The translations under genes and the position numbers were made by a program. This document shows positions 2 through 60,957 of a stretch of 64,000 bases of DNA, in pieces. Positions within the stretch are counted from its first letter, which is position 1, and every line of letters starts with the position of its first letter. The DNA comes from a virus (lineage: Duplodnaviria > Caudoviricetes): the IMG/VR virus record IMGVR_UViG_3300031994_000020; one strand, given 5' to 3'. A model generated the notes under the pieces. It was not told the origin of the DNA. It worked only from the letters and a program-made list of their open reading frames with translations, and made no database searches.

Positions 2-820
2 GGAGTTCTTGCTGCATTAGGGTTAGGGTCCGCCGCAACAAAAACTAATGGTCAAGATGCTATGATAACTCTTAATGGAGTTCAATTTAAATCAGACAAT
101 AATCACTTCGATATAAATGGTTATAGTATTGAGGCTAATTCAGTTGGTAGTACGACTATTAAGACTAAAACTGATGATAAGATTTTCGATACAATTAAAG
201 ATTTTATTGAAACATATAATACTTTAATTAAGAAAATTGATACAGCTTATAATGCAAGTAATAAGGGCTATAAACCATTAACTGATGAAGAAAAAGAAGT
301 TTTAAGTGAGAAACAAGTTGATGAATGGGAAAAAGTATTAAAAGATTCTGCTTTGTATAAAGATAGTTCTTTATATGAAATAAGTAACGTATTAAAGAAT
401 ACTATGAGTACCACATCTATTGATGGAATGAGATTATCTACAATAGGAATTAATCTTGGTAATTATTTTACCACAGATAAAAATGAGCGTGGAGTCTATA
501 CAATAGACGAAGATAAACTCAAAGAAGTTATTAATAAAGATCCGAATAAAGTAACTAATTTCATTACTAAACTATCAGCTAAATTATATGACAATATAGA
601 CAAGAAAATGAAGTCTACAAATTATAGCAGTGTTTATACTGTATATAATGATAAACAGATTAAAGCTGATATTGAAGATTATGATAAAAAGATTAAAGAA
701 TGGGAAAAGAAAATCGAGCAGATTGAGGATAAGTATTATAAGCAATTTGCTAAAATGGAAACACTTCTTTCTTCAAGTCAAAGTAAATCCAATTATTTCG
801 CAAGTTATTTCGGAATGTAA
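2..820 (+). CDS. fliD: Flagellar filament cap protein FliD, C-terminal part (5' truncated by window edge)
   Basis: Open from window start. GQDA-ITLNG, 'IKDFIETYN', 'YKPLTDEEKEVLSEKQVDEWE' and C-terminal coiled coil 'IEDKYYKQFAKMET' match clostridial FliD_C. Confidence 0.88.
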   Translation, partial: GVLAALGLGSAATKTNGQDAMITLNGVQFKSDNNHFDINGYSIEANSVGSTTIKTKTDDKIFDTIKDFIETYNTLIKKIDTAYNASNKGYKPLTDEEKEVLSEKQVDEWEKVLKDSALYKDSSLYEISNVLKNTMSTTSIDGMRLSTIGINLGNYFTTDKNERGVYTIDEDKLKEVINKDPNKVTNFITKLSAKLYDNIDKKMKSTNYSSVYTVYNDKQIKADIEDYDKKIKEWEKKIEQIEDKYYKQFAKMETLLSSSQSKSNYFASYFGM

Positions 821-4526: not shown

Positions 4527-4586
4527 ATATATTTCCTTTCTTTATCTTATATAAATATTATATCATATTTTTTTTAAAATGTCAAA

Positions 4587-4931
4587 TGGACTTGACGGGA
4601 GTCGAACCCGTGTCCGCGATTCCTATTCCAAATCAATTTTTTACGCAATAGTGTTTTAAAGTGTTCACTCACTGAGCCGACAGGTTATACCTGTTTAGTC
4701 CCACCACTTGTTTTTTCTAAAACAAGAAACTATATAGCCTTTCTTATAAGAGTGAGCATTGACTGGCAAAAGTATTACTCACAATTCCTAAACTCAAGCT
4801 GCAAGAGCAACTTTAGTAGGGAAAGAAACAATTTTCTTTGCGTTTATTTTAAATTAGTGATTGCATAACGCGCATATCATTTCGTGCGAATTGATTTTTT
4901 TATTGAACCTCGTCGAATACCTTACAAGCCC
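4587..4931 (-). ncRNA. ssrA: tmRNA, tag peptide (A)AKKIVSFPTKVALAA ending in TGA
   Basis: 5' GGGCTTGTAAGGTATTCGAC, resume context ATAAAC-GCA, tag ending ALAA, 3' GGACACGGGTTCGACTCCCGTCAAGTCCA. Confidence 0.92.
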
Positions 4932-5316: not shown

Positions 5317-5616
5317 TTATTTTCTTTTAAAATCTTTTTCCCATTCATTTATCTATTCTTCAAAAGCATAATAATCACTAGGAGAATACCATCTTCTGCG
5401 TTTATTATAATTCTCTATCCATTCTTCTTTAGTGCATCTATTTATCCAATCATGTATATCATAAGAACAGAATATTTTTTTATATGCTTTACCTTTTTTG
5501 GGTAATTCTTCAAAATTAGTATTACGAACTTTTTTATTCGCAAACTTTTTCATTTCTTTTGTTGTCCCAGGGCTTCCATCTGTAATTACGGGATTATGCT
5601 TATAACTTCTGCTCAT
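5317..5616 (-). CDS. hypothetical protein (TAG at 5353-5355 read through)
   Basis: AFEE*INEWEKDFKRK-TAA; the extended stop abuts the next RBS. Confidence 0.65.
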
Positions 5617-5782: not shown

Positions 5783-5928
5783 AAATGACAGCTTATCGAG
5801 AACTGTCGACGCTGTAGTGTGGCTATATGCCCAAAGGATCCGGACCCACTCTTTAAATGATGGCGCCTCTCGACCAGAGCTACATCCTACAGAATTTTTC
5901 TCTATGCAGAAATTTCTAACTCCTGCAA

Positions 5929-7101: not shown

Positions 7102-7515
7102 TTAATCAGGTTCACCGCTAGCATAGTCAACTTTCTAAATAAAACCTTTACTCAATCTCTCTGGATCTTTTACTTCAGATTTCTCATCATTAAAAGGTGC
7201 TTGAAAAGCAGTTACATTTATTTTTATATTTTTTTCTTCTGCATCATCATTAATATCTTTAAATACTTCTGGTTGAAATTCAAACATGCCTGTAGACCCT
7301 ATTTTAAATTCTAAATAATTTTTACTATTATTAAATTCTAAAAAAATAGGGTAATTTATTGCTCTATTTTCGCAGCAATAACCAAATTTATACACAGGGG
7401 TAGAAGGAAAAGTATATTGTTTATATGTAACAGCATGTTCTATTCCGTCAATAATAATATGTTCTTTTGTAATTTCCGTTCCTGAATCATAATTAGTTAT
7501 TTGAGATATATCCAT
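7102..7515 (-). CDS. hypothetical protein (TAG at 7135-7137 read through)
   Basis: KGFI*KVDYASGEPD-TAA, followed immediately by a GCGGGAAC/GTTCCCGC hairpin. Confidence 0.65.
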
Positions 7516-9275: not shown

Positions 9276-11117
9276 TTATCTATCATTATATAGATATATA
9301 TTCTATGCTTCATTCTAAGCACAAACGTCATTTGTTGTCCATGTAATTGATGAGCTTACAAGTGAATGGCTACCTGAAGTTGACATTGCATTTTTCATAT
9401 TTCCGCCAATACCAAAATGGATCTCTTTTCTTTTTTCACCATTTGTTGATTGAAATAAACCATCCTAAGCATTAACATTCATACCCGTCATATTAGTAAT
9501 TGTAATAATATTTTCAAAATTTTTACAATTAGCAAGCATATATCCTACACTTGGACAATTAACTGGTATTGTTAATGGTTGATTAAAATTATAACAATTT
9601 GAAAAAGTAAATGTTAATCTAACGTTACTATTTGGTAATTTTATAGGTTGGTTAAATGAATGAGCACTATTAAACATACTTGTCATATCATAAACAGTAT
9701 CAGGTATATTAATAGGCTGATTAAATGACTAAGCATTATAAAACATGTTACTTGTATTAGTAATGTTATTAGGTATATTAAAAGGTTGGTTAAATGATCG
9801 AGCATTGTAAAACATCTATGTTACTGAACATCCGTTTCCATTATTATACTATTGTATATTTAATGAAGCATTAAATGGACTATTATCAAACATCCTTTCT
9901 GTATTCTGTGCATTTTCAATATATACAGAAGAATTTAAATTACTTGAACTAAAAATACCTGATAATCTTACTGGTTTATTAGAATAAATATTAACAGAAC
10001 TATTAAAATTGTAACAGTAACCAAATGCAGAAGAACAATCAGCCTATTCAAATTTTGAATTACAATAAAAATTCATGGGTTGATTAAAATTTCTACAATT
10101 CTAAAACATTTGATAAGCATTCATTGTTTCAACATAAACAGGACTATTAAAATTAATACAATTTGTAAAACAGTATTGACTCTAAGTAACATTTTTAATA
10201 TTAACAGGACTATTAAAATTAAAGCAGTTATAAAAACAATTAACTATACTTGAATTTAGATTAATATCATCAATAATTATATCTATAGGTTGATTAAAAT
10301 TATAAGCTTCTCTAAAACAATTTACCATATTAGTTACATTATGTGGTAAATTAAGAGGTTGATTAAAATTAAAACAATTTTGAAACGTCCCCATCATCTG
10401 TAAATAAATATTATTAGTAGCATTTGATAATATAGTTATAGATGAATTAAAATTTCTACAATCATAAAGCATATTTCCTATATTCTTAACATTTTCAGGT
10501 ATTGTAATAGGCTGATTAAAATTATTACAATATCCAAATGCAGCAAATAATGATGTGCAAGTTTCTGGAAAATTTACTCTTTGATTAAAACTTTCATATT
10601 GCTACATTAAATAATCCAAATTTGTAGCGTCTTCAGCTATTGTAATAGGCATATTATAAGCATTTTGAAAACGATTCATAGGGAATGTTCCACCTATAAT
10701 AGTATTATTAGTAAAAGATATTGAAAAATCTACACTTTCACTATAAATCTAAGATTTAATATATCCTGCACTGTGTTCTATATTACTTTTTAGCTAGGTG
10801 ACCCTCTAGGAAGTACCATAATAATCTATATTAAAAAAATTATCATAATTCACAGGATTATTTTTTAAATTTGAATAAAGATAATCCATAGATGATATTA
10901 AATTTTCATTAATATACTTTTCTACTGTTATACTAGCATCAGTACCACCTGTTGTTTTTGTTAATATATGATAACGATATACAGTAGAAGATCCACCGCC
11001 AGTATTTATGTTATTAATGGCGGCCGCCATTTCAGAAGGCTTATAAGTTGTTGCAACTCCCGCCTTGCTTCTTATACTATTTGCTATATCTAAAAAGATA
11101 TTTGTTAATGTACTCAT
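9276..11117 (-). CDS. 613-aa BspA/DUF285-like leucine-rich-repeat protein, probably virion-associated (13 in-frame TAG)
   Basis: Single frame from ATG 11117 to TAA 9276; repeats MFxNCxxFNQPxxIPxxV; every internal stop is TAG. Confidence 0.8.
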
Positions 11118-11135: not shown

Positions 11136-11891
11136 TCAGAAATAAGTATCTAATACTTGAGTTATTGCTATATTTATTTGCTGATCGGTATAATCATTTG
11201 CCGCATCAATTTGTGTATCAACATAACTCTTACTTACTTTATTTCCTAATTCTGTATTGACTTTAGAACTTGACCATACTTTACTAACATCAACAGAAGT
11301 ATCATCTATTTCTGCTGCAACAGCTACTGCATCTGTTATATAATATGTTGTTCCATTAAGTTTCTCTGATGCGGGAAGTGCGTCGTACTGAGCTTTGGTC
11401 AACTCCATTGAAGGATCTTGACGTTGAGGTACCCATTGAGTACCATCCCATAAATAAAAAATCCCATCTGCAATACAATAATACATTTTTCTATCAGCAG
11501 AAGTGAATCTAGGTGGAAGATCCTCTTCAGTAGCGACTATATCATAGTTACCATCGGGACTACCTATTTCATTCCATTTTGTATCATCAAAAACCATATC
11601 TTGGTTTTCTCTTATACAACGATAAAAACAAGAAGCATATATAGCCAAATCACCATACTTATAAGTATCTCCCGCAGTCCATTCATAAATAGGAGTACCA
11701 TCATTTACAAAAGCTTGACTTTCTCTTGTTTCCCCTTCATCATTCTTCTACTCGAATGTAATTATTGATTGACCATCTTGTTTAGTTATGGATTTTACTT
11801 TACATGGTGCGCCTTTAAGACCGCCAAATTGAGCCGCAGTTTCATCTGTGTACTTTTTGGCAAGCGCATAAGCTGTAACTGATAATCCCAT
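11136..11891 (-). CDS. virion accessory/fiber-like protein (TAG at 11748-11750 read through)
   Basis: MGLSVTAYALAKKYTDET..ITFE*KNDEG..YLWDGTQW..ELTKAQYDALPASEKLNGTTYYITD. Confidence 0.75.
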
Positions 11892-12390: not shown

Positions 12391-12498
12391 AAGACTTCCA
12401 TATTTGAGCCGGGGACTGGATTCGAACCAGTATCTTCTAATTTTGTTAGATGCACTACCTTTATACTACCCTGGAAATTATTTTGCTGATGAAGTCTT
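12391..12498 (-). ncRNA. CAGCAA-stem RNA enclosing a tRNA-like domain (copy C)
   Basis: AAGACTTC-ATCAGCAAA...D arm, 5-nt-loop hairpin, T arm ACTGG-TTCGAAT-CCAGT...GAAGTCTT. Confidence 0.7.
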
Positions 12499-12991: not shown

Positions 12992-12993
12992 CG

Positions 12994-13085
12994 CAGGAGC
13001 TGTAGGACTCGAACCCACACCCGAGGCTTTGGACACCTCTGTCCCGGTTTTAGAGACCGGTGTGCTGCCATTACACCAAGCTCCC
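12994..13085 (-). tRNA. Amber-decoding tRNA (anticodon CTA), tRNA-Trp paralog with long variable arm
   Basis: CCGGT-CTCTAAA-ACCGG; acceptor GGGAGCT/AGCTCCT-G; T arm identical to the adjacent tRNA-Trp; 25-nt variable region. Confidence 0.93.
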
Positions 13086-13094
13086 AATTAATAG

Positions 13095-13165
13095 CAGGAG
13101 TTGTAGGACTCGAACCCACCTCTCTGGTTTTGGAGACCAGGGCACAACCCCTATACCAAACTCCC
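13095..13165 (-). tRNA. tRNA-Trp(CCA)
   Basis: CTGGT-CTCCAAA-ACCAG, GGGAGTT/AACTCCT-G. Confidence 0.93.
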
Positions 13166-13171
13166 ATAATC

Positions 13172-13281
13172 AAGACACTATATAAGTTTGGATTCGAACC
13201 AAAATCTTTAAACTTTTACATCTAATATTCTACCTTTAAACTACTCTCCCTTTGCGGAAGCAACATCGCTGTTAGTGTCTT
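13172..13281 (-). ncRNA. ACAGC-stem RNA enclosing a tRNA-like domain (copy F)
   Basis: AAGACACTA-ACAGCGA...D arm...TTTGG-TTCGAAT-CCAAA...TAGTGTCTT. Confidence 0.65.
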
Positions 13282-15482: not shown

Positions 15483-15555
15483 TTCTCATTCTGGGAATCG
15501 AACCCAGTCTCCAACCCTCTTTAGGGTCGGGTGCTTCCCATCACACTCAATGAGA
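15483..15555 (-). ncRNA. tRNA-like RNA with 8-nt anticodon loop
   Basis: TCTCATT/AATGAGA acceptor, D and T arms, CGACC-CTAAAGAG-GGTTG. Confidence 0.6.
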
Positions 15556-16778: not shown

Positions 16779-17384
16779 TTATTTAAAATAATGATCTTGT
16801 ATCTGCTTTTTAGGGTTCTTTACTGTCGTATTAAAATACAAATAAGAACTCATTTCAATATTTTCACCCTTATAAAACACACTTGTATTTCCATCCAAAA
16901 CATATTTTGCGGCATTTATGGCATCTTCAGGCAAGGTTCCCGCATCATACATTTTCAATGCCTTTGATAAACGCCCATTTGATGCAGGTCCAAATTGTCC
17001 TTTTTCATAAATCACATCTTTTATAGTGTCAGCAAAGTAAGTTTCGTGATTCACTCTGTTCAAAACTACAATCCCCACAGCTTGTTGACCAGCCTCACAC
17101 TGGTTTCCCGCCTCACTCTAAATGATAGAAGATAAATACCTTAAATCTTCTTCATCATAAATTTTCTCCATTTCAATAATTTCTTCTATTATTTCTTCCT
17201 CTTGTTCAACAATAGAACAATCTGAAACAGATACGGTATTAGTAGATACACCCTAATTCAAAATGATAGGGCTGCCATCATGCACTCCCTGATAATATCC
17301 TCTGTAATAAGACTCTCTTAAAACTATAATTGAAAGTGCTAAAATAGCTGTAATTACTAATACTGTTAAAATTTTCTTCTACAT
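16779..17384 (-). CDS. SleB-like cell wall hydrolase (Hydrolase_2) with N-terminal TM/signal; 3 in-frame TAG including codon 2
   Basis: M*KKILTVLVITAIL...LSSII*SEAGNQCEAGQQAVGIVVLNRV..DVIYEKGQF..IQDHYF; RBS AAGGGAG. Confidence 0.88.
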
Positions 17385-46100: not shown

Positions 46101-48118
46101 AAGGCTGTGGTATAATGGAAATTCGGCGCGAGCGCGACTGAAAGGAGTCGCGCTCGCGCCGCGCAATTATACCACTTTTCTGAAAATTTGTCAATAGGAA
46201 AATTGCACAAAAATTTGCGGTAGATTTCTAACATCTACCGCGCAAGTGCCTATGCATACAGGGCGTCAAGATCTGCTGCCGTCAGTATATAGCCGTTATA
46301 GTATTTTTTTATTCTTATGGCATCATCTTCGGTATCCACTTTTACAATTAAATCATCCTCATCATCATATACGTAGAACATATGTTTTCTCCTCTCCTAT
46401 AGTTATGGTGCTTGAGGGTTTAACCCTCAAGCATCTTCAGCCACTCGGCATCCGCATCTGCGGTGTAAGGAACTGTGTCCTCTGTGGTGTTTGCGATTGC
46501 TTTAAAACCAACCTCAGTGTAAACCTCTTCAAGTTCTATTCTTTCGTTCATCATATTTTTTGTTCTCCTCTCTTGTTTTCTTTATCTTATGTATTTATTA
46601 TAACACGTTGTTATCTGCTTGTCAATACTTTTTTTAAAAAATTTTTAATCATCTTCATTTTCAAGTATATGTAAACAACATTCAAGATGAAGATCCATAT
46701 TTTCGATTTCTTCAAATTCCGCAGAAAACTCTTCCCAATCATCATCATCAGTAGACTCTAATATCTCTTCTCCATAAGCCTTGAGTTCCTTTACAAGTTC
46801 TATATACTTTGCAATTTTCTTTTTCATTTCTTTGTTCTCCTCTCTCTTGTTCTCTTTATCTTATGTATTTATTATACTATACGTTTTATTCTTTGTCAAT
46901 ACCTTTTTTAAAAAATTTTTTATTTTATATAGTATTCTATGACATACTTTCCGCTGTCTTTGTCCTGATATACTGTTGCCTCTTTCACTCTTTCTATAAT
47001 CTCTTTCACTTCATTCATGTAATTTACTTCCACTCTTTTCATTTTTTTATCCTCTCTCTCTGTTTATCCTTTGTTTTCTGAAAAGGCTTTTTTCAAGCCT
47101 TTTCATATCCTCTCTTGTATATTGCTATTATGTCAAGTATCATTTCTTTTGTTATATCTTCTCTTCTTGTTACTTCTTTTTCAAGTGATGTGAGTGTTCT
47201 TATTATTGCATTGTTTGTTAACTCTTCTACTGTACTTGTGAACTCTTCTGTTGTTACTGTTATATTCATCATATCTTTTCTCCTCTCTTGTATTGCTTTA
47301 TCTTATGTATTTATTATACTATACGTTTTGTTGTTTGTCAAGTGTTTTTTTTATTTTTTTGTTTGCGATATGCCCTTTTAGGTTACTGCTTATTTATTTT
47401 TCTTGAAGTACTCTTTATCCCATATCCACTCTACAATATAAGTCTTTGTTTTTGCGTTAAGGCTTTTGTAAGCTACTGTTGACATTTTGTTTATCCCGTA
47501 AAAGAACTTTCCTGCTTCTTTTCTATCTGTAAACTCTCTTCTCTTCATCATCTCTCTTGTTCTCCTTTCCTTTATCTTGATTAAAGTATACCATACCATT
47601 ACACGTCTGTCAATAGTTTTATTATAAAAAGTTGCACAAACTTACTTAGTTATTTTTGTCTATTTTGCTAATAAGATCTTTTTGCTAAATTTGGCTTTTT
47701 ATTGCTTTTTGCTGAGTTTTGCAATTTCGTGAATTTGCATAAACTTGCATAATTGCTTTTATGCATTTTGCTAAACCCGAACAGGTGTTCGGAATGAAAA
47801 TAAGGCGCGCCTTGATCGTGGGCGCGCCTGGCTCAAATAGTTTATCTACACAACGTTTCTTTTTATGAAGGGGGGCTATATTTTGGGATGAAACTCTAAA
47901 AAAATTTGAAATTGGTTTGTGCTCGACCAAAAAATCTCCAAATCAATTTTCAAATCTAAAAAACGATAAAAATCTCCAAATCATTTTTCAAATTCAGAAC
48001 ACGACAAATCTAGGAAAAAACAAAAGTGAGACATTCTCCTCATATCCTATCTTAAAATATCTACGCCCCTATAAAACCTCCGTTTTACTTTCTTATACGA
48101 TACTTACAGTTAGCCTCT

Positions 48119-48904
48119 CTACCCTTTCTCAGCTGCCGCAGCCTCGTCGCATACATAGAAAATATTTTCATCATATCTTTGTTTTTTTAGTCTTTCTATC
48201 CATTCCTTTCCATCATTCGCCTCTTCCCAACTTATCATATTACCATCTTTTATTTCATAACCATATTCTTCCAATACATTTATTATCTTTTTCCTTTTAA
48301 TATTGGATAAAACAGCAACAAAATCAATAGGCAAATAACAGTACATTTCCCCTTCTTCTATAGCTTCTTTTATCAATTTCTCAATATACTCCAACTCTTT
48401 ATTAATATCACATTTTTCCGCTATTTTTTTAGCATCAACCGCATTAATCATTCTCTTTGTATCTCCTTTTCTTCATAATCAACATAATAGACACCTTCTC
48501 CATAAACATCCCTTATCCATACAAAGCGGGAACCCTCCATTTCAACAATAGCGAAAGTCTTATAATCCTTTACAATACGCGGGGACCTATACTTGCAATA
48601 AGCCATGCTAGCCAACATAGACAAAATTATTAATACAATTAGCCATATCGCTACTACATTAACGCGCTCCCATTCCGCATCAGACCTCATATCCCGCGCC
48701 CTCCTCATCAAATATCTTTTGTGCCAAAGCAGTTAAAGTCATTTGCATTGCAATATAAGATTCTTTAAATTCTGGATTAAAATTAAATTCCTCCTGAAGC
48801 TCTTCTTCTGTTAAAGCCTCTAAATAAGCACCTTCAAGATAGACATCACTGAGATAATCTTTAAATTTCTTTTCTATTATATTATAAACTTCTTTCCAAG
48901 ACAT
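48119..48904 (-). other. Three small ORFs (48119-48451, 48448-48711, 48680-48904)
   Basis: Coupled ORFs downstream of a promoter at ~48935-48966. Confidence 0.65.
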
Positions 48905-49095
48905 ATTTATATCTCCTTTTTTCTTTTTTATAATATAATTATATCAAAAATTTTTTATAATGTCAAATAAAATTCTTTTGACCAAACTTGCGTTACAAAA
49001 AATTTTTTGGTATAATATTAGTAGATGGATGAAAATTTCATTTTCATCATTTACTAAATATGGATAATTTAAATTACGCATAGGAGGAAAAAGCA

Positions 49096-50202
49096 TTGGA
49101 TAATTTGCAAGAAAAAGAAGAAAAACTCCAAGCGGAAGATGGATATATAAAAATGGATTAGAGTTTAGAATCTCCCGCAGATAGAGTTAAAAAAGTAGAA
49201 GAAATTATTGCCAATACTCCTTCAGAAAGATTAACGCCAGTATATTTAGAAAAATTATCAGACTATATTATTTTAGCTATGACAAAAGAAGAAAGAAAAC
49301 AGAAAAAAATATTAACAGATAATCATATGGTAACAGTGAATAAGCGGGAGATGTCTTATGAAGGATTAGTAGGTAAATTAGAAAATGGAGAAGATGGTAT
49401 TTATAATATTATGACAAATGATAAAAATATTATCTTTGCTCCTAAAGTTAAAATTACAGAAGAAGATGTAGAAACTATTCCTGGTTTAAAAGAATTGCGG
49501 GAAGGTATAGAGCGAATAGAAGAAGAGTGTAAAAGCGCCCGCGGAGCTCGCGCCTTCCGCCTTAAAAAGCAACTTATAGAAATGAGACAAGATCAGTATG
49601 TTCTTAAAAACGCATATAAAAAACCAACTTATGTAATGAATATAACAAAAAGTTTATCTAAATTAGATTTACCAGATGAAAATTACGTTGATGATGATGG
49701 AAACCCGCAGAGTGCCACATTAATAAATTTATTTAATCCAAAGCATGTTTCTGCATTATTATGTAATTACTCTCAAATAAAAGAAGATTGTTGGGATAAA
49801 TTTAATAGCGATATAAAATGGTTAATGGAGGATCTTGATTTTCTTGTTGATGCAACATTAAAAGAAGACTATCCTTTATATTATGATATAGTTATTTATA
49901 AAATAGATGGATTACAAAATATAGATATTCAACAAAAATTATTTGAAGATTATGGAATTAAACATAGTGTAGAATATATATCATCACTTTAGCGCAATAA
50001 GATACCTAAAATGATTGCAGATAAAGCGGGAGATGATTATCTTATTTAGCACTATACTAATGAAGAATATGGAAAATGGAAAAAGTGCTCGCGGTGTGGA
50101 CAAATCAAGTTAGCCAATAATAGATTTTTTTCTAAAAATAGTACAAGCAAAGATGGATTTTATAGTATATGTAAATGCTGTAGAAATAAAAAGAAAGGAT
50201 GA
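49096..50202 (+). CDS. Conserved phage protein with C-terminal Zn finger (TTG start; TAG at 49159, 49990, 50047 read through)
   Basis: AGGAGG RBS; ISSL*RNKIPK, YLI*HYT, KKCSRCG..CKCC-TGA. Confidence 0.8.
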
Positions 50203-50208
50203 TGTTAA

Positions 50209-51417
50209 ATGGCAGAACAAAGATTTTGTTCCAAATGTCGTAAGACAATGGCGGCAGACACTAACTTTTATACCTATAAAGATGGAACGAAATGCGAATT
50301 ATGCAAAGCATGCTTAACTATGCACATAAATAATTAGGAGCCGGAGACATTTCTTTGGCTTTTGGAAAAATTTGATGTTCCTTGGATTCCATCAGAATAG
50401 AATGTATTAAGAGATAGAGCTTATCAAAAAGACCCCCATAAGATGACCGGTATGTCTGTCTTTGGTAAGTATTTGTCTAAAATGAAATTAAAACAATAGA
50501 ACAAATATACTTAGGCAGATACTGAAAGGCTAAAAGCGGAAGCTGAAGAAAAAGCTAAAAAATATGGTATGCCTGATGAACAAGCGCAAGCTCAATTAGA
50601 AGAAATGAAAACTGCTTATGAAAATGGAGAAATTTCAGAAGCTCAATATAAAACATATGCAGAACAAAATGCACCAGAGCCAACACCCGAACCTGCGGCG
50701 GCTCCTCCTTCTGATGGATATGAGTATCCGGTAAATTCTCCCTTTGAGGAAGTACCCATTGTAGATGTAGGTGCGGATCTTACTGATGAAGATAAAATTT
50801 ACTTGGCTATGAAATAGGGAAGACTTTATAAAGCATATGAATGGGTTGCGCTTGAGCAATTATATAAAGAGTTTATGGATTCATTTGATATTCAAGGTGC
50901 AGCAAGAATCGACACTCTTAAAATGATATGTAAAACAAGTTTAAAAATGAATCAAGCAATAGATTGCGGGGACGTCGATTCGTACCAGAAGTTATCTAGA
51001 GTATATGATGCCATGATGAAATCCGCAAAATTCACAGAAGCTCAAAATAAAGAAGGTAAATCTGATTTTGTTGACTCTGTTGGTGAATTAGTTGCTTATT
51101 GTGAAAAGAATGGTGGACAAATTCCTAAACATGAAATTAAAGCTCCTTATGATATTGTTGATAAAATTATAAATGATTTAAAAGAATATAATAAGACTTT
51201 AATATATGAAGATAAATCATTAGCGGAAGAAATTGAACAATATTTAAAGAATAAAGAAATTGCTGAGAATATGAAGAGAGATAGAGAAGCTGCACGAGAA
51301 AAAGGTCAAGATGAAGTTGAATTAACTGATGAAGATTATGAAAATTTTAAAAAAGCAATAGCAGAAGATAAAGAAAAAGATCAACAACTTGAAGCGGGAG
51401 GTGCTGATGAAGAATGA
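50209..51417 (+). CDS. Zn-finger protein directly upstream of TerL, putative terminase small subunit (5 TAG)
   Basis: FCSKC..CKAC; TAG at 50335, 50398, 50497, 50512, 50815; contexts KQ*NKYT*AD, MK*GRLY. Confidence 0.7.
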
Positions 51418-53153
51418 GTTTACAAAATTTATTAGACCTCTCAGAATCAAGATCAGTTAAACAAGGTCTTTCTGAAGAAAGATTAAAAGAACAAATTCCT
51501 CATTTGAGGAAATTAATCTCTTTTTATAGAGAATATCCTGATTATCTTGTTGATTTTATGAAAGGTCCAGATAGTACTTTTCAATTTTATTTTTATCAAA
51601 GAATATTTTTAAGAGTGGTAATGCGACATAGATATGTTTATGCAACCTTCCCTCGTGCTTATAGTAAATCATTTTTAAGTATGATGGTTTTGATGCTTAG
51701 ATGTATTCTTTATCCTAATAGTCAATTATTCGTAACGACGGGCGGAAAAGAGCAAGCTGCAAGTATCACAATAGCTAAGATAGAGGAGATATGTAAGCTG
51801 ATTCCCGCACTTAATAATGAAATAAATTAGAACCGCGGTGTTTCTAAAAAATCTAAAGATGATGTAAAATATGTATTTAAAAACGGTTCTTCTATTGATA
51901 TACTTGCGGCAAGACAATCTTCCAGAGGTCAACGTAGAACAGGTGGCCTTATGGAGGAATGCGTGCTTATAGACGGTGATATACTTAATGAAGTTATAAT
52001 TCCTACTACAAACGTAGATAGATTACTACCGGATGGAAGTAGACATAAAGAAGAAAATGTAAATAAATCTCAAATATATATTACAACGGCGGGATAGAAA
52101 AATAGTTTTGCATATGATAAACTTGTGGAACTTTTAGTCCAGAGTGTAATTGATCCAAATGAGGTTATGGTAATAGGTGGAACTTATGAGACACCAGTAA
52201 CTGAAGGACTATTAGATGAGTCTTTTGTTGATCAACTTAAAATACAAGGTACTTATAATGATGAATCTTTTGATCGTGAATATAGATCAATCTGGTCTGG
52301 TGATGTAGAAAATGCTTTTTATTCAGCAGAAAAATTTGATAAACATAGAGTATTATTACAGCCAGAGTATGAATATAGCGGAAGGTCCTCTAAATCAGCC
52401 TACTATGTAATTGGCGTAGACGTTGGTCGTATTGGATGTACGACAGAGGCTTGTGTATTTAAATCAACACCTCAACCACAAGGTTCAGATCTTAAGACTC
52501 TTGTTAATATTTATACTTACGAATCAGAAGATTTTGAAACACAAGCAGTTAATTTAAAAAAATTATATTATAAATACAAGGCGCGGGTGCTCTCTATAGA
52601 CGCCAATGGTCTAGGTATTGGTCTCGTTGATTTTATGACTAAAGCTCAAGTAGATCCAGAGACTGGTGATGATTTACCTCCATTTGGAGTTGAAGGCGGT
52701 ACTTCAGAAGACGCTTCAGAGCTTTATAAAAATATAAAAGGGTATGGAGTTGAAGAAAATGCCATGTATTTAATTAAAGCAAATGCTCCTATAAATACAG
52801 AAGCTTATTCTTATGCTCAAACACAAATGTCAAGCGGAAAGGTAAAGTTTCTTATTGATGAACAAGCTGCAAAGACTAAATTAATGAGTCAAAAACAAGG
52901 ACAGACATTAAATGCAGATCAAAGAAATGAATATCTTAAACCTTTCGTTTTAACTTCAATATTAAGAGAACAAATGTTAAATTTGGTACAGGATAATGAA
53001 GGTGTTAATATTATTTTAAAGCAAAATAATAAAAGTATTAGAAAGGATAAATTTTCTGCTTTTATTTATGGTTTGTATTATATAAAACAAGAGGAAGATA
53101 AAAAGAGAAAGAGAAAGAAAAGAGATATAAGTCAAATGTTATTTTTTAGTTAA
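51414..53153 (+). CDS. terL: Terminase large subunit (TAG at 51828 and 52095)
   Basis: Walker A-like PRAYSKS, Walker B GLMEE, motif III ITTAG*KN, nuclease 'GVDVG','IDANGLG','KDKFSA'. Confidence 0.93.
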
Positions 53154-53216
53154 CTTGGGCAGTGAAAATTAAGAGAAGTAAGATTAAATTGATATACAGT
53201 ATAAAGGAGATTGATT

Positions 53217-53573
53217 ATGAGAGCAAGCCGTGGTGAAATAAAGATAGAAGATATATTAACTGATGCGGGATTGGTATTTAAAGAAGAGTATAGTTTTTCA
53301 GATCTCGTATCAAGTAGCGGTAGACCACTCAGGTTCGATTTTGCAGTCTTTGATGATAATGGAGACTTAGATTTTTTAATTGAGTATCAAGGTATTCAAC
53401 ACTATCAAGCTAAATCTAAATTTGGTGGTTCAAAAGGTCTTTATAGACAAAAATATAATGATGCTCAAAAAAGACAATATTGTCAACAACATAATATAAC
53501 TTTAGTTATTATTCCTTATTAGGATGAAAATATACTTGATTACGATTATATTATGAAAGCGGCAGGATATTAA
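53217..53573 (+). CDS. DUF559/Vsr-like PD-(D/E)XK endonuclease (TAG at 53520)
   Basis: 'SRGE..LRFDF..IEYQGIQH..D..K..YC..LVIIPY*D' (family motif IPYW). Confidence 0.85.
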
Positions 53574-53594
53574 TCCTGTCGTTTCCTTTGTTGC

Positions 53595-53623
53595 TTGACA
53601 ATTTAGAAAAAATATGTTATAAT
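53595..53623 (+). promoter_or_regulatory. Perfect sigma-A promoter upstream of portal
   Basis: TTGACA-N17-TATAAT with TG extension. Confidence 0.8.
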
Positions 53624-53653
53624 AGAAATATAGTGAGAAAAGGAGGTGTCTCT

Positions 53654-55273
53654 TTGCGTAATAGAATTAAAGAAAATCATATTAAAGATTTTAGTATGAT
53701 GACACCAAGAGATACTAACCCTAATCAAACTTCTGGTTATCAAGGTATCCCCGCCATTGATTTTAATAAGATTAGGATTGGTGCGAAAACCCTTGATGAT
53801 GCCATTCTTAAATTAGGTGATTTAAAGAAAGCTAATCCAAAATTAGCAGATAAAGGAACTATATTAAAAGCTATAACTAGTTATGATTTACAAACTATGA
53901 GAGAAGCATCTGATTTATTTTATAAAGTAAGTGGTATTTATTCTCGTATTATTAAATATATGGCTTTTATGTATCGCTATGATTGGATGATTACTCCTTT
54001 CGTTAATGATGAATCTGTTAAAAAAGAAAAATTATTAAAAGGTTTTCAAAATGCTTTAAATATATTAGATAATTTTGGAGTAAAGAAAGCTTTTGGAGAA
54101 ATTGCTAAAGAAGTACTTTTACATGGAGCTTATTATGGTTATAAGGTAGATACAAAGGAAGGAATGTGTTTACAAGAACTTCCTGTAAATTATTGTAGAA
54201 GTAGATTTAATCAAGGCAAAAGACCGGCAGTTGAGTTCAATATGAAATTTTTTGATGAACAGTTTAGAGATGCCGCACAGAAGATGAAAGTATTAAAAAT
54301 GTTTCCAGATGAATTTTCAAAAGGTTATATTTTATATAAGCAAAATAAATTACCTCCTGAATTCATGGGTGATACAAGTGGTTAGTATTTATTAGATCCA
54401 AATAAGACTGTTAAATTTAATATTGCGGGAGACGATTATCCTCCATTTATAGCAGTCATTCCTTTATTAATTGATTTGGATGAAGCACAGGCATTAGACA
54501 GAAAGAAAACTTTACAAAGATTATTAAAGATAGTAATTCAGAAGATGCCGTTAGATAAAAATGGTGAATTAATATTTGATGTGGATGAAGCTCAACAGCT
54601 TCATAATAATGCTGTTCAGATGTTAAGTAGAGCAATTGGTGTGGATGTCTTAACTACATTTGCAGATGTTGATGTAGCTAGTATGACCGAAAATCAGGCA
54701 TCTGCGCAGACAGATGATTTAGCAAGAGTTGAAAGACAAGTTTTTAATGAAGCTGGTTTATCTCAGATGCAATTTAATACTGATGGAAACATAGCATTAG
54801 AGAAGTCTATATTAAATGATGAATCAAGTATTTATAATATGATTCTTCAGTTTGAGCAATTTTTAAATGAGCTTATTGAACCATGTAATATGGGTAAGAA
54901 AGCTCAATTTAAAGCACAGATATTAAGCACTACAATTTATAATTATAAAGAGTTATCTAAATTATATAAAGAACAAATGCAAATTGGTTTCTCAAAGATG
55001 TTACCTCAAATTGCACTTGGTCAATCACAAAGTAGTATTCTTGCTAATGCATACTTTGAAAATGATATACTTGATCTGGTTAATGTATTTATACCTCCTT
55101 TAATGAGTTCTACTATGAATGAAAATATTCTTAATAGAGTTAAAGGCGGGAACCCAGGCACTGGGAGTCCATCAACTAACCCTGGTAAGGAACAGGAAGG
55201 CGCCGGCCGCAAGGAATTACCAGATGATCAAAAGTCAACAAAGACTATTCAAAATAGAGAGAGCATGAATTAA
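53654..55273 (+). CDS. Portal protein (TTG start; TAG at 54383)
   Basis: Position between terminase and head genes, ~540 aa, C-terminal 'AGRKELPDDQKS'; SG*YLLDP. Confidence 0.8.
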
Positions 55274-55286
55274 GGAGGATATAGTA

Positions 55287-56636
55287 ATGGCACGAATGAG
55301 TGTTGCAACGATAGATTCTCCGGAGTTTATTAATATTACTTCTATTAATCCTCTTGTTTCTAAATGTGAGATAAAAGTTCTTTATGTTGGAGAGAATAGA
55401 AATAGAAGTTTTATTTCAAAAGAAGTAGCTACTGAAATGGCGCAGACTTTACCTGGATGTCCTATTGTTGGCTACTATATTGAAAATAAAGAAGACTTTG
55501 GAGATCATGGTGACCAAATGATTATTGATGGTGAGGGTATTAAATTTAATAAGCTCACTAAACCTTATGGATTTGTTGCTCCTGATAGTAAAATATAGTT
55601 CCAAAAGTTTGAAGATACTGATGAATTTGGAAATACTGTTATTAGAGATTATTTAATGACAGAAGGGTATATTTAGACTGGACAGTTTGAAGAGTGTCAG
55701 AGAGTTGTCGATAAAGGAAATCCGCAATCTATGGAACTTGATGAAAAAACTTTAAAGGGTCATTGGTCAACTGATAATAATCGTGGCATTGATTTTTTCA
55801 TTATAAATGACGCGATATTTTCTAAGTTATGTATTTTAGGAGAGGACGTTGAACCTTGTTTTGAAGGTGCTTCAGTTTCTGCTCCTCAAGTAAGTTCTCA
55901 TTTTAGTATGGATAATGAATTTACAGCTACTTTATCATCAATGATAAAAGAATTAAAAGAACTTACTTTTGCATTACAAAATAAAGGAGGAAATTCAATG
56001 GACGGTATGGAGAACACAACACCAGTAGTTGAAGAACAAGCTATTGAAGTACCTGCCGCAGAAGAAGTTGCTACAGAAAATTTTTCTGCTGAAGAGGACA
56101 AAGTAAGTTCAGAAACTATAGTTGAAAATCAAAATACAGTAGAAGAGTTCGAAAAGAAAGAAGAACCTGAAGAGGAAAAGAAAGAAGAGTCTGAAGAGAA
56201 AGAAAAAGAAGAAGATGATGAAGAGGAAAAAGAGCCTAAGAAAAATCATTCTTTAGAAGATGAATTTGCTTTAGTAAAAGAAGAACTTGACGAACTCAAG
56301 AATCAGTATTCACTTTTACAGAAAGAAAATGAAGAACTTATTAAGTTTAAGAACTCTGTAGAAGATGAAAAGAAAGATGCTCTTATAAATTCTTTCTATA
56401 TGCTTTCTGATGAAGACAAGAAAGAAGTTATTGAGAATAAATCTAAATATTCTTTAGATGATATTGAAGCTAAACTTTCTGTTATTTGCGTAAGAAAGAG
56501 AGTTAATTTCAATAATGAAGAAGTAAAAACAGAAGAACAGCCTGCTCTTATTTACAATTTTAATGCGGCAGAAGAAGTTGATGCACTTCCTGCATGGTTA
56601 AAGGCTGTTGAAGCTAAACGAAACAATAATAATTAA
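55287..56636 (+). CDS. Prohead protease/scaffold fusion (TAG at 55596 and 55674)
   Basis: 'GENRNRS','PIVG','GYI*T','QSMEL','LCILG..VEPCFEGA', acidic coiled-coil C-terminus. Confidence 0.82.
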
Positions 56637-56649
56637 GGAGGAATATACA

Positions 56650-57345
56650 ATGGCATTTACAAGAGTCGGATATGGTCAAGTAGAGCCTAATCAACTTTCT
56701 GCTCAGAAAACTGGCCAGATTTATGCTAGTCTCCCTCTTGATCCTACTGTTAACGTACTTCAGAATGGTGAATTCATGTATTATGATTATGCCACTGGTA
56801 AAGTAACAGCAGATGATTCAACAGGTGTGGCAGAGCCTATGCTCGTATTCAATGAAATAAAACTTTATGAACCTTTCTGGAGACGTTCTTATAAAGATTT
56901 TGCAATGATTAGAGTTGGTGACAATTATGTTACTTCTGATCTTGCAGTTAATGGACCTATCGAAGGAAAATATGGTGATGGCGCTTTAACAACAGGCGTT
57001 GTTCCTACAGCAAATTACATGGATGATCAGACACCTCCAGTACAGCAAACACTCACCGGTCATACTGAGTATCCTTATCGAATGGATGGTATCGCACCTC
57101 GTCTTTTCAAGACAAATGTAGGTGATATTTATACTACTAATATGGTTAAAGCTGGTGCTAATGTAACTTATGCTGTTGGTGCATTACTTGTACCTGTTAA
57201 AAATACAACTTCAAAGACACTTGTTCTTGAAGAGTTCGTACCTGCTCAGACAGGCGATAAGCCTACTGGTATGGCATGGGTTGTTGTTAAAGTTTACACA
57301 ATGCCTGATGGTCAAGATGCTGTTAAGCTTCAGAGAGTACAATAA
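56650..57345 (+). CDS. Head decoration/cement protein
   Basis: Between scaffold and MCP; 'GYGQVEPNQLS','LQNG'; no TAG. Confidence 0.65.
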   Translation: MAFTRVGYGQVEPNQLSAQKTGQIYASLPLDPTVNVLQNGEFMYYDYATGKVTADDSTGVAEPMLVFNEIKLYEPFWRRSYKDFAMIRVGDNYVTSDLAVNGPIEGKYGDGALTTGVVPTANYMDDQTPPVQQTLTGHTEYPYRMDGIAPRLFKTNVGDIYTTNMVKAGANVTYAVGALLVPVKNTTSKTLVLEEFVPAQTGDKPTGMAWVVVKVYTMPDGQDAVKLQRVQ

Positions 57346-57364
57346 TTAATAGGAGGATAAGAAA

Positions 57365-58396
57365 ATGGCTTTAGAATTTAAAGATGTATTAGCATTAGCT
57401 AAAACCGTAGCCAAGGCTAATTCTTCTGCTCCTACTGCGTACAGCTTTGGAGATAAGAAATATAGCTATAATGAGTTACAGGAAACTTTAAGAGATGAGT
57501 TCAAGGAAATCGCTGGAACTTATTCACTTTATAGAGAAAATAAGAATACTGTATTTGCTCTTTTAGAGCAGACAATTGACGATGTATTACCCGCAAGAGT
57601 TCTTGAACAATATGGTCAGTTCGCTGAAATCAAGACTTTCGCACAGGGTGACAAGCCTATCTTCACACAGAAGATAACAACCGCTTCAAGAAGACGTGCA
57701 AGACAGTTTATCGGAAAAGTTGGTCTTGCTGGTTTATACGAAGTATTCAAGCTTGATGGAACTAGCTACGAAGTAACAACCAATGCAATTGGTGGTGCTG
57801 CGCAGATCGGTTTTGAAGAGTGGATGGATGGTCGTGTAGATTTCGCAGACGTTCTTGATATAGTAATGGAAGGTCTTGATTCTTGCATCTATGTTGAGAT
57901 TGAGAAGCAGTTATTAGGTGCTGTAGGTATTATGCAGGCAGCAAATAAGAGATCTGTAGCTGGTTGGAGTGAGACCGATATGGACGCTTTAATCTCCATC
58001 GCTGATTCTTATGGAAAATCTGCTATTTACTGTACATATGAATTTGCAGCAACTATGGTTCCTGCTCAGGGCTGGGTTTCTGATGAAATGAGAAATCAGA
58101 AGTGGAATAATGGTTATATCGCTAACTATAAGGGTCATACAGTAATTGTTCTTCCTCAGTCATATGAAGATGAAACAAATAAGGTAAAGGTTATCGATCC
58201 TAGTTTCGCATACATTATTCCTGTTGGTGCTGAAAAACCTGTTAAGATTGCATTAGAAGGACAGACAATCGTTGATGAATACACCAATTATGATAGATCA
58301 AGAGAAGTACAGATCTATAAGAAGATCGGTGTAAGAGCTATCTTTTCTAACGCTATCTGTGTATATCAGAACACAACATTAAAACGTGGTATTTGA
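57365..58396 (+). CDS. Major capsid protein
   Basis: 343 aa, position, high-expression codon bias, terminator downstream; no TAG. Confidence 0.8.
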   Translation: MALEFKDVLALAKTVAKANSSAPTAYSFGDKKYSYNELQETLRDEFKEIAGTYSLYRENKNTVFALLEQTIDDVLPARVLEQYGQFAEIKTFAQGDKPIFTQKITTASRRRARQFIGKVGLAGLYEVFKLDGTSYEVTTNAIGGAAQIGFEEWMDGRVDFADVLDIVMEGLDSCIYVEIEKQLLGAVGIMQAANKRSVAGWSETDMDALISIADSYGKSAIYCTYEFAATMVPAQGWVSDEMRNQKWNNGYIANYKGHTVIVLPQSYEDETNKVKVIDPSFAYIIPVGAEKPVKIALEGQTIVDEYTNYDRSREVQIYKKIGVRAIFSNAICVYQNTTLKRGI

Positions 58397-58419
58397 TAAT
58401 TAATTGCTTTAAAATAAAA

Positions 58420-58456
58420 TATGGGGAAGATGGATCAATCTTCCCCAATATTTTTA
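58420..58456 (+). terminator. Intrinsic terminator after MCP
   Basis: GGGGAAGAT-ggatca-ATCTTCCCC then T-rich. Confidence 0.75.
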
Positions 58457-58482
58457 TATAAGAGGTAAAAGGAGATAAGTTT

Positions 58483-59088
58483 ATGAAAGATATAAATAGT
58501 GGTTTAATTTCCGTTAAAAATAGAAATAATGGAACAACAGTTTATAAAATCCCAGATAAAAATATAGTAAGAACTTTTGCTCCAGGTGAAACAAAGCAGA
58601 TTTCTTTAGATGAATTAAAAGAACTTCAGTGGATTCCTGGCGGTGAATATTTACTTAAAAATCTTTTAATTGTTGATAATAAGGTAGCATTAGATGCTCT
58701 TAATATGAAAGTAGAACCAGAATATTTCTATACTGAAGATGATATTAGAAAACTTCTCACAGGTATGGATAATATGGATGAATTTCTTGATTTTCTTGAT
58801 TTTGCAACTGAAGGTGCTATTGATATAGCAAAAGATATTGCTGTAAAGGAAAGAATTCCCGATTCAAGAAAGAGAGAGGCTCTTTCAGCAAAAACTGGTT
58901 TTAATATAGATAGTGCAATAAATATGGACAAACTCTTTGAAGAAGAAGAGAATAAGCCTGAGCCAGAAAAGAAGGAACGCAGAGTAAAGGTGGCAGATGC
59001 TAAAGAAGAAGAAGCTCCTAAGAGAAGAGTTGCTATTTCTGAAAAAAGTGCGGAAACCGCATCTAAGTATAAAATAATTTCTAAATAA
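58483..59088 (+). CDS. hypothetical structural-module protein
   Basis: 201 aa with RBS. Confidence 0.75.
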   Translation: MKDINSGLISVKNRNNGTTVYKIPDKNIVRTFAPGETKQISLDELKELQWIPGGEYLLKNLLIVDNKVALDALNMKVEPEYFYTEDDIRKLLTGMDNMDEFLDFLDFATEGAIDIAKDIAVKERIPDSRKREALSAKTGFNIDSAINMDKLFEEEENKPEPEKKERRVKVADAKEEEAPKRRVAISEKSAETASKYKIISK

Positions 59089-59112
59089 TATTAGAAGAAA
59101 GTGAGGTGCCGA

Positions 59113-59718
59113 ATGAGTAGAATAAAAGCTCCCACCTCATTTGTAACCATATATGATAGTTTCTTTGCAAGAGTAACTGATGATATGTATATGGAGATAA
59201 CTGAACTTGAAACGTTAGAAATGTTACAAGACCTTTTATTAAATGCTATTTCTAGATTTGAATTTCCTAGAGTAGATATATTCGATTATGAAGAAGGTCA
59301 TTAGGAAGATATGGGTACTTATAAAGGCGTTGAAAGTGAAAATAAAAAAGTGCCAGCTACCGGATAGGTAGGTGGCTTTTTTAATTATCTTCTGACTGAT
59401 GAAGAAATTAATATTCTTGCTTTAAATATGGTTATAGAATGGTTAGGACAGCAATTAGATACTACTGAAAATTCAAGAATGAAATATAGTGGTTCTGATT
59501 TTAAATTTACTTCTCAAGCTAATCATATGGCTAAATTAAAAGTTCTTATAGATGCACATAAACAAGATTGTGTTCATTTACAGAGAATTTACAAGAGAAG
59601 AGTATTTACTGAAAATGGTGCCCAATCCACCATGGGTCAGATTGTCTCTCGCCCTGATTATGGAGTAGACAAAATTAATAGAATAGGTTGGTATTCTAAA
59701 CGTGGTATTAAAATATGA
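59113..59718 (+). CDS. Putative head-tail adaptor (TAG at 59302 and 59365)
   Basis: Single frame; 'LTDEEINILA..EWL','SDFKFTSQANH'. Confidence 0.7.
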
Positions 59719-60013
59719 TTTAGAATTTGATAATGATACTATAAAGAAAAGTCTTGATAGAATCACAAATCAAATTTTTAAATTATTACCAAGTAGAGAA
59801 GAAGGCGGCGATTGGTTAACGCCACTTCAAAACTTGATATATGAAATTATTGGTATGAAAGCACTTTGGGTCGATCAAACAAATTTGTTTTCTTTATTAT
59901 GTAAATTAGAAGCCTTATTAACATTAACAGATGAAAATGATTTTCTTATTTTTAGAAAACTTATTTTTGAATGTTTAGGGCTTGTAACTCAAATAAAAAA
60001 ATGTCTGGATTAA
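59702..60013 (+). CDS. hypothetical neck-region protein
   Basis: 'NQIFKLLPSREEG'. Confidence 0.7.
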   Translation: MVLKYDLEFDNDTIKKSLDRITNQIFKLLPSREEGGDWLTPLQNLIYEIIGMKALWVDQTNLFSLLCKLEALLTLTDENDFLIFRKLIFECLGLVTQIKKCLD

Positions 60014-60957
60014 GTAATATGTTATTAAGAGCCGGTTATAAAGGTTATGACAGGGCGGATGATCGTAACGTCACTGGTAAGTTTAAATCTTTTTTAGCTG
60101 CTTTAAAAAATTCATACCAAGCGGAATGGATTACCTTAAATAAAGGTGAAGAAAATGAACAAAGATAGAGATGTTTAATAAATCCTTCCCGCTTAACAGA
60201 GCAATTTGATAAAAAAGTTATTTCAATAGAGTTTGAATCTGGGTTAGAAGAAGGTTCAGTATTTTATTAGGATAGAACCAACAGATATTGGATTGTTAAT
60301 CTTCAACAGCATACAGAGGAAGCTTACTTTAGAGGTACTATAACAAGAGCTGATGGCATTATAGAAGTTGATGACCATCCATATTGGGTTAGTGTGCGCG
60401 GACCTGTTGAAACTGAGACGATATAGAATCAGAAGCATGGTATTACATAGAATGATCTTAATTACTCTATGGTAATTCAAATTGCTAAGGATAGTAGGAC
60501 AGTACCTTATTTTTCAAGGCATAAAGTTATTAAAATGAGATTATCTTATCCTGATGCGGAAACTGGAGAACCTTTAGAAGAATGGCATAATTAGAAAGTG
60601 GTTGCCACTGATAAATATTCTGAAGAGAAAGTTATGCAAGTATATCTTGATGAATAGTATGATAATGAGGCGGAAGATGCCATGATCCCAGAAGAGGAGA
60701 CAGTACCTGATCTTATGGCTCCACATATCGAGGGTCCCGCAGATGCACATGTTTATGATGAAAATTTAGTCTTTTCTATTGTTGGTTTAAACAGTGGAGA
60801 ATTTGTAGTTAACTCTGATAAAGTTAAAATTACAAAAATGACTGATACTTCATGTACTTTAGATATTTTAGCAGGAAAATCTTTCAGTTTTAATTTGTCT
60901 TATAAGACGCAGGATGGAACTACAGTTGATAAAGTAATAACTGTAAAATCATTTTAA
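60001..60957 (+). CDS. Putative head-closure/neck protein (6 TAG: 60166, 60268, 60424, 60448, 60592, 60655)
   Basis: Single frame; R*RCLIN, VFY*DRT, HN*KVVATD. Confidence 0.75.

Follow-up and report, generated by a model that had tools for sequence, protein, structure and literature searches.

What does the codon TAG mean in a phage that places it inside the reading frames of its structural genes? We address this question for a 64,000-nucleotide (nt) stretch of DNA, IMG/VR record IMGVR_UViG_3300031994_000020 (hereafter the window), part of a large, low-GC (about 30–35%) tailed phage from a sheep gut metagenome. Codon-by-codon comparison with homologous proteins, together with a suppressor tRNA of anticodon CUA encoded in the window, indicates that this phage very probably decodes UAG as tryptophan (Trp).

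Translated with table 11, the morphogenesis genes at 49–61 kb, in the plus-strand arm that begins at 49 kb, come out in pieces; with TAG as sense they become single open reading frames (ORFs). A preliminary description of this DNA had claimed that the fragments fuse in one frame to full length, and indeed the fused ORFs contain no internal TAA or TGA and no frameshift. As in other recoded phages, read-through of one kind of stop yields full-length family matches, here to the terminase large subunit (TerL) and the portal protein. Of the ORFs called with TAG as sense, 71 terminate in TAA and 31 in TGA, without an in-frame TGA in any of them, the pattern of a code like table 32, in which TAG is Trp and both TAA and TGA still terminate. 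The earlier count of 22 TAGs in eight genes at 49096–60957 holds once the first gene is taken to start at TTG 49096. This is most likely its start, rather than ATG 49060, because AGGAGG lies upstream; the ATG would give 23 TAGs, and with the TTG the extra one, at 49081, falls outside the gene. About 17 further TAGs lie elsewhere in the window (13 at 9276–11117, three at 16779–17384, one at 11136–11891), along with a few singles, which is compatible with the total of 42 TAGs in 14 genes given previously. In the mainly minus-strand arm at 17.4–48.7 kb, presumed early, the genes are practically free of in-frame TAG and contain TGG in ordinary numbers. In the late, structural and lysis genes TAG makes up about half of the Trp codons, compared with none in the presumed early arm; TAG-rich genes are poor in TGG (13 TAG versus 1 TGG in a DUF285 gene, 3 versus 0 in the endolysin gene).

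Which amino acid does TAG specify? We compared the window proteins, with TAG written as X, to 86 loci by local tblastn and read the codon opposite each X; the IMG/VR relatives were the best 80 of 302 TerL-matching contigs (67–92% identity). Pooled over the 86 loci, the roughly 1280 codons aligned opposite the window's TAGs comprise TGG 844 times, TAT 113, TTT 95, TGA 74, CAA 4 and CAG 0 times; the glutamine (Gln) that homologues show at the TAG columns of code 15 phages is practically missing. Column by column, TGG holds the majority in 15 of 22, tyrosine (Tyr) or phenylalanine (Phe) in five and Gln in none, the remaining two being gapped or mixed.

To calibrate this tally, we restricted the same alignments to relatives that have no in-frame stops. 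In these standard-code relatives the TAG columns hold Trp in 77.9%, Tyr in 7.7% and Phe in 7.7% (n=521). Such a tally had been named beforehand as the check on the Trp reading, and its X columns are dominated by Trp, not by Gln, Tyr or random residues. The window's TGG columns give a similar profile (Trp 67.7%, Tyr 12.3%, Phe 9.6%), whereas its Gln-codon columns hold Gln in 54%, and its Tyr-codon columns Tyr in 78% and Trp in 1%. Because the profile of the TAG columns matches that of the TGG columns and is unlike those of the Gln and Tyr columns, the alignments exclude Gln and fit Trp better than Tyr or Phe. At the two TAG columns of the TerL alignment, the standard-code sequences have Trp in 34 of 36 and 29 of 36 cases. 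As a control of the method, the same tally resolves TAG as Gln in phAss-1 and in locus L077, TAG as glutamate (Glu) at 31 loci and TGA as Trp at 14. The eight genes, labeled from PHROG profiles, and the codons of the relatives at their TAGs are:

49096–50202, plus strand: protein resembling sigma factors (phrog_5767), its C-terminal stretch endonuclease VII-like (phrog_1035); three TAGs at 49159, 49990 and 50047, opposite TAT, TGG and TGG, respectively
50209–51417, plus strand: conserved protein (phrog_3314) encoded ahead of the terminase gene; five TAGs at 50335, 50398, 50497, 50512 and 50815, with a TGG majority in four columns and TTT in one
51414–53153, plus strand: TerL; two TAGs at 51828 and 52095
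53211–53573, plus strand: HNH/homing-endonuclease-like ORF; one TAG at 53520, opposite TGG in 59 relatives
53588–55273, plus strand: portal protein; one TAG at 54383, opposite TGG in 68 relatives
55287–56636, plus strand: head-module protein (phrog_3313); two TAGs at 55596 and 55674, each opposite TGG in 61 relatives
59101–59718, plus strand: structural-module protein (phrog_3853); two TAGs at 59302 and 59365, one column mixed or gapped and one with a TAT majority
59971–60957, plus strand: structural-module protein (phrog_31155); six TAGs at 60166, 60268, 60424, 60448, 60592 and 60655, three columns with TGG, one with TTT, one TAT or mixed and one mostly gaps

Terminase and portal genes are thus present, as first described, but some of the original labels were off: TerL and portal are the third and fifth genes listed, and the first is sigma-factor-like.

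Could the TAGs be assembly errors? The source run covers the region about 20x, and its contigs are identical to the window. Contigs of an independent sheep RNA library (X4) retain the TAGs at 54383, 60592 and 60655, and a goat run those at 49159 and 55674. This comparison, made on assembled contigs, speaks to the presence of the TAGs, not to expression level or transcript ends; the source run without differences and the independent sheep and goat contigs together establish that the TAGs are real. In a related strain from another study (run X3), which differs from the window by a few percent of bases in the pieces compared, A is replaced by G at 60656, giving TGG at 60655–60657 where the window has TAG. 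This codon is a natural TAG/TGG polymorphism.

What reads the TAGs? The window carries the cognate suppressor tRNA of a recoded phage, beside an ordinary tRNA for Trp:

12993–13085, minus strand: tRNA(CUA), 93 nt, called by ARAGORN and Rfam
13094–13165, minus strand: ordinary tRNA-Trp(CCA), 72 nt; anticodon loop CUCCAAA, variable loop of 4 nt

The tRNA(CUA) lies 9 nt downstream of tRNA-Trp(CCA); the T arms of the two are identical and the acceptor stems differ at one base pair. It has a Trp-type body with a 7-bp acceptor stem, G73 and the anticodon loop CUCUAAA, and hence the body and G73 of a tRNA-Trp with CUA in place of the decoding anticodon CCA. The variable region, 25 nt long, contains a hairpin (GAGGU/GCCUC, loop GUCCAAA), and the CCA triplet of this tRNA is located in the 7-nt loop of that extra hairpin. 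The anticodon CCA is the main identity element for tryptophanyl-tRNA synthetase (TrpRS). Both the X columns and the Trp-type body of tRNA(CUA) thus support the Trp reading with which the preliminary description had started. ARAGORN labels the gene as a tRNA for pyrrolysine (Pyl), on the strength of the CUA anticodon by itself; we rejected this label, as the body is Trp-like and the TAG columns are Trp. No family of the Pyl system (pylS/pylBCD) turned up among roughly 40 window ORFs scanned, a comparison by protein family and not by the fold of tRNA-Pyl.

Where does this tRNA come from? A pattern scan of IMG/VR for homologues, with the variable region left free, returned 12 distinct sequences, all with anticodon UCA and all on phage contigs of 14–177 kb (10 of 12 over 60 kb). 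One resides in record G006, a relative with in-frame TGAs opposite W and X positions of the window. The tRNA(CUA) is nearer in sequence to this opal-suppressor family than to its neighbor tRNA-Trp(CCA), and an origin by plain local tandem duplication of the latter is therefore unlikely. The exact anticodon-arm pattern found only unrelated CUA tRNAs in IMG/VR and no copy of the window tRNA, and a DNA search of five relatives' records did not find the tRNA locus. Among 185,579 species genomes scanned, the extra-arm family occurs once, on a 3-kb contig in a metagenome-assembled genome bin. Our guess is that this contig may be phage DNA, and the family appears to be phage-borne.

The hairpin in the variable region is present in all 13 sequences (12 UCA and the CUA of the window). 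Its helix shows covariation, with 98% of cells paired and two of four pairs compensatory, with up to five pair types. The loop has 7 nt, either CUCCAAA or GUCCAAA, of which UCCAAA is invariant. CUCCAAA is the anticodon loop of the window's tRNA-Trp, and the loop-proximal stem GGU/ACC is likewise identical; the extra hairpin copies the Trp anticodon arm, NGGU-NUCCAAA-ACCN. These tRNAs have two anticodon-arm-like hairpins in tandem, the first with a stop-reading anticodon and the second with CCA. The anticodon of the first hairpin follows the stop that is recoded (UCA in the TGA=Trp relative, CUA here), which argues that this hairpin is the decoding arm. We tentatively propose, as a possibility worth pursuing rather than as the expected outcome, that Trp-type stop suppressors have duplicated their anticodon arm, such that one copy would decode the stop (UCA or CUA) and the other would retain CCA for no purpose other than recognition by the host TrpRS. 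That the host enzyme would still recognize the tRNA through its second hairpin is the more speculative element. A role for the host enzyme is reasonable, since neither five relatives' records, three complete genomes among them, nor the window ORFs scanned yielded a gene for TrpRS or a release factor.

We also noted 57 CUA tRNAs of other gut phages (loci L112–L188) that have a variable region of 20–30 nt and a conserved CUCUGAAG or CUUUGAAG motif. A 'Gln decoy arm' was considered for these and rejected: the CUCUGAAG-like motif folds partly into the stem, or CUG lies off the anticodon position in the loops. The motif could be a Gln anticodon mimic or a mere GAA-loop hairpin, and we claim no Gln mimic.

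Is the window a singleton? A metagenome contig of 144.6 kb (JAEEGL013603757.1; L197) encodes a 93-nt tRNA(CUA) of the same family, with the extra loop CUCCAAA. It shares with the window about 82% identity, over three short stretches only (9.4 kb compared). Beside its tRNA(CUA) is an ORF of 161 amino acids with three TAGs, at which distant homologues have Tyr, Tyr and Trp. Since L197 combines the same tRNA with TAGs at such columns, TAG=Trp is, by this comparison, no singleton. Closer database copies of proteins related to those of L197 (P0002–P0008) have Gln at the L197 TAG columns, most likely the product of translating TAG with table 15. L197 also has, at 5829–5899 on the minus strand, a tRNA(UCA) of 71 nt whose body is unrelated, and which may give this genome a second suppressor.

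How do the relatives use their stop codons? TerL groups the phage with Enterococcus phages H1 and EF1, Geobacillus virus E3 and the phAss-1 group (44–46% identity), and the TerL nearest to that of the window shares 92% identity with it. Fourteen relatives (L033, L035, L066, L067, L069, L073, L076, L080–L086) have in-frame TGA at W and TAG columns of the window, as in code 4; these TGA users fall into at least two clades of the TerL tree. In phAss-1 and L077, TAG stands opposite Gln, and the phAss-1 paper likewise reads it as Gln. Another 31 relatives (L028, L036–L040, L044–L052, L054–L061, L063–L065, L070–L072, L074 and L079) contain up to 89 TAGs per 20-kb locus, opposite Glu. Their pooled profile (Glu 51%, aspartate 11%, Gln 10%) matches that of Glu codons, and in TerL Glu is the majority in 37 of 57 columns and Gln in 0 of 57. 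These 31 phages look like readers of TAG as Glu, a reassignment that, to our knowledge, has not been reported for phages. A 74-nt tRNA(CUA) of Glu-type relatives (L106 5681–5754, minus strand; L108 4744–4817, plus strand) is unlike both the tRNA-Glu and the tRNA-Gln of the same genomes. In the TerL tree (FastTree), read as topology only and with recombination possible, the window stands among the standard-code relatives L007, L008 and L020, and the Glu and TGA users occupy several separate clades. Judged by these column profiles, the phage group holds at least five codes: TAG=Trp, TAG=Glu, TAG=Gln, TGA=Trp and the standard code.

How firm is the assignment of Trp? Several points weigh against it, or against the role proposed for the extra hairpin. 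Another aromatic residue is possible at the five columns in which relatives have mostly Tyr or Phe. When given a CUA anticodon, the tRNA-Trp of E. coli is mischarged with Gln, a point in favor of Gln as the amino acid, and charging with Trp is therefore not to be assumed; the alignments, however, oppose Gln. All support for TAG=Trp lies at the level of sequence. An alternative fold, in which the CCA hairpin is canonical and the CUA hairpin inserted, fits a 4-nt variable loop equally well, and the argument for a decoy arm is made up of mimicry and covariation. For the window phage itself, the negative result for TrpRS, RF2 and anti-RF1 genes covers 64 kb of the genome. Gln is the default of gene callers (code 15) and the amino acid of the related phAss-1 group, with Gln dominant for phAss-1 and L077 in our own tally, and the proteins of the second TAG=Trp phage stand in databases with Q at TAG. 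Yet Gln is never the commonest residue at any TAG column of the window, and the Gln-column profile of the same alignments is entirely unlike that of the TAG columns; we consider this reading extremely unlikely. For Tyr or Phe, or an ambiguous Trp/Tyr meaning, one could cite the five columns, an endolysin TAG opposite Tyr in SleB and the long variable arm of tRNA(CUA), a feature of bacterial tRNA-Tyr. But Trp occupies just 1% at Tyr columns, compared to 78% at TAG columns, the window's TGG columns show the same admixture of Tyr and Phe, and the tRNA has a Trp-like body, G73 and an extra-arm loop with CCA, not GUA. An aromatic residue other than Trp is very improbable.

Two explanations would leave the genetic code of the phage untouched or make it that of its host. 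If the TAGs were real stops, of a degraded phage or from assembly errors, the frames should not be broken by TAG alone, never by TAA, TGA or a frameshift, and at Trp columns; nor do the same TAGs in independent samples and the encoded cognate tRNA(CUA) agree with this idea. Editing of adenosine to inosine in the mRNA (UAG to UIG) would likewise give Trp, and beyond this we see no direct support for real stops or editing. Contigs of the RNA library retain A at the three TAGs covered, a weak objection as the library may contain DNA. Real stops or editing are, in our estimation, exceedingly improbable. Might the host itself read TAG as Trp? Phages that match their hosts in reading TGA as glycine exist (Borges preprint). 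The presumed early arm, however, avoids TAG, in line with a host of standard code, this code is also that of the closest relatives, and the single extra-arm tRNA among the species genomes sits on what is perhaps phage DNA. We know of no bacterium with TAG=Trp, and a host with this code is very unlikely.

How, then, would TAG be decoded as Trp? Host TrpRS would charge tRNA(CUA) with Trp, and the charged tRNA would compete with release factor 1 at UAG. Unmodified host machinery would read the early genes, and late genes would become translatable only after the suppressor tRNA has accumulated. The restriction of TAG to structural, tail-like and lysis genes and its absence from the other arm fit the 'code switch' model, which has been proposed for other recoded phages (Borges preprint). 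The extra hairpin might supply the CCA identity element and free the true anticodon to be CUA, or UCA in TGA=Trp relatives; two changes in the anticodon could then take one scaffold from reading TGA as Trp to reading TAG as Trp. In an AT-rich genome with a suppressor tRNA, TGG and TAG would be expected to drift as synonyms, and this may be how TAG came to make up about half of the late-gene Trp codons despite a nearest TerL of 92% identity.

The remaining features of the window include a minus-strand tRNA array with a transfer-messenger RNA (tmRNA) at 2.9–16.6 kb:

62–820, plus strand: protein with the C-terminal domain of FliD (flagellar cap)
867–2378, minus strand: DUF2828/DUF7788 protein adjoining the tRNA array
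4584–4931, minus strand: phage tmRNA with tag peptide AKKIVSFPTKVALAA; the L197 homologue has about 82% identity
9276–11117, minus strand: DUF285/BspA-like repeat protein, candidate tail or receptor-binding protein; 13 TAGs and 1 TGG
16779–17384, minus strand: endolysin (Hydrolase_2, SleB-like); 3 TAGs and no TGG
17476–48711, minus strand: mainly minus-strand arm, presumed early; well-supported ORFs without in-frame TAG

The DUF285 gene has its TAG columns at variable positions, where Tyr is somewhat enriched at four sites and Gln is absent, among 120 homologues whose 25–45% identity is too distant for an assignment. Against solved SleB structures one endolysin TAG could be aligned, the one opposite Tyr. 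Well-supported ORFs at 17476–48711 read the same under either code. In small minus-strand ORFs at 47646–47930, 48110–48451, 7102–7515 and 5317–5616, a TAG stands 3–13 codons before the next TAA or TGA; here it may serve as the terminator, with a short read-through tail in the presence of the suppressor tRNA. Odd tRNA-like genes, all on the minus strand, lie at 15483–15555, 12406–12475 and 13179–13250; among them are a predicted 4-base anticodon (aaag), a 70-nt 'tRNA-Phe(aaa)' and a match to the Rfam tRNA model without an ARAGORN call.

Why does this matter? Reassignments in phages have been deemed confined to two, TAG to Gln and TGA to Trp, by what the host glutaminyl-tRNA synthetase and TrpRS tolerate; TAG=Trp would show that this limit is not absolute, and a spare Trp anticodon arm on the tRNA is an adaptation that may circumvent it. 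If true, the decoy arm separates the identity shown to the synthetase from the codon that is read. Pipelines that apply table 15 to in-frame TAG put Gln at positions that are almost certainly Trp in the phage, an error exemplified by the database copies of the second phage's proteins. Related rumen phages with at least five codes make steps of codon reassignment directly comparable and, if true, the group offers a natural setting for the study of fast turnover of the genetic code. An amber-suppressing Trp tRNA of natural origin, perhaps charged by way of a decoy arm, is also a lead for genetic-code expansion.

Is TAG=Trp new to viruses? Where phage and host codes differ, the Borges preprint describes no reassignments other than TAG to Gln and TGA to Trp, and later tools and surveys of phage recoding consider codes 4, 15 and 25. 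A preprint by Kienbeck et al. (2023) on theta ribozymes predicts a Trp isotype for 19.4% of 180 phage suppressor tRNAs (tRNA-Sup(CUA)) and mentions a 'rarely reported code 32', yet classes the genomes as code 15. In our incomplete coverage of the literature, this isotype remark is all we found on TAG or UAG as Trp in phages, and we found no description of a duplicated anticodon arm or of an anticodon-like variable arm. The preliminary view that such a lineage is undescribed stands insofar as TAG=Trp had not previously been established for any virus; with the isotype hint as precedent, its novelty is not absolute. Like the gut-phage amber suppressors of Kienbeck et al., which tRNAscan-SE scores as Trp isotype, the window tRNA is Trp-like, but their evidence is isotype prediction only and our assignment comes from codon-by-codon alignment with calibrated controls.

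How does the phage compare to known recoded systems? Like code 15 phages (crAss-like, Lak, phAss-1) and code 4 phages (Agate, Jade), it uses one stop as sense, mostly in late, structural and lysis genes, and has a phage-borne suppressor tRNA, code-neutral early genes and a presumed standard-code host; unlike them, it would combine the codon TAG with the amino acid Trp. It shares TAG to Trp and a very AT-rich genome with the plastid of Balanophoraceae (NCBI table 32), where the whole genome of a plant organelle is recoded, whereas the virus is partly recoded and has a specialized tRNA of its own. Class II tRNAs and allo-tRNAs also have an extra helix between the anticodon arm and the T arm. The family found here differs in an extra loop of 7 nt that equals the Trp anticodon loop, in a 5' linker that is A-rich and unusually long, and in a Trp-like body, as opposed to the Ser-, Leu-, Tyr- or Sec-like bodies of class II tRNAs. 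The opal-suppressor tRNA-Trp(UCA) of phages, as in the AP1/HF2 TrpRS:tRNA pairs of 'code change operons', is likewise a Trp-type tRNA with a stop-reading anticodon. Here, by contrast, no phage TrpRS was found in the relatives, the tRNA family has a second hairpin, a mimic of the Trp anticodon arm, and, in the window and L197, the anticodon is CUA.

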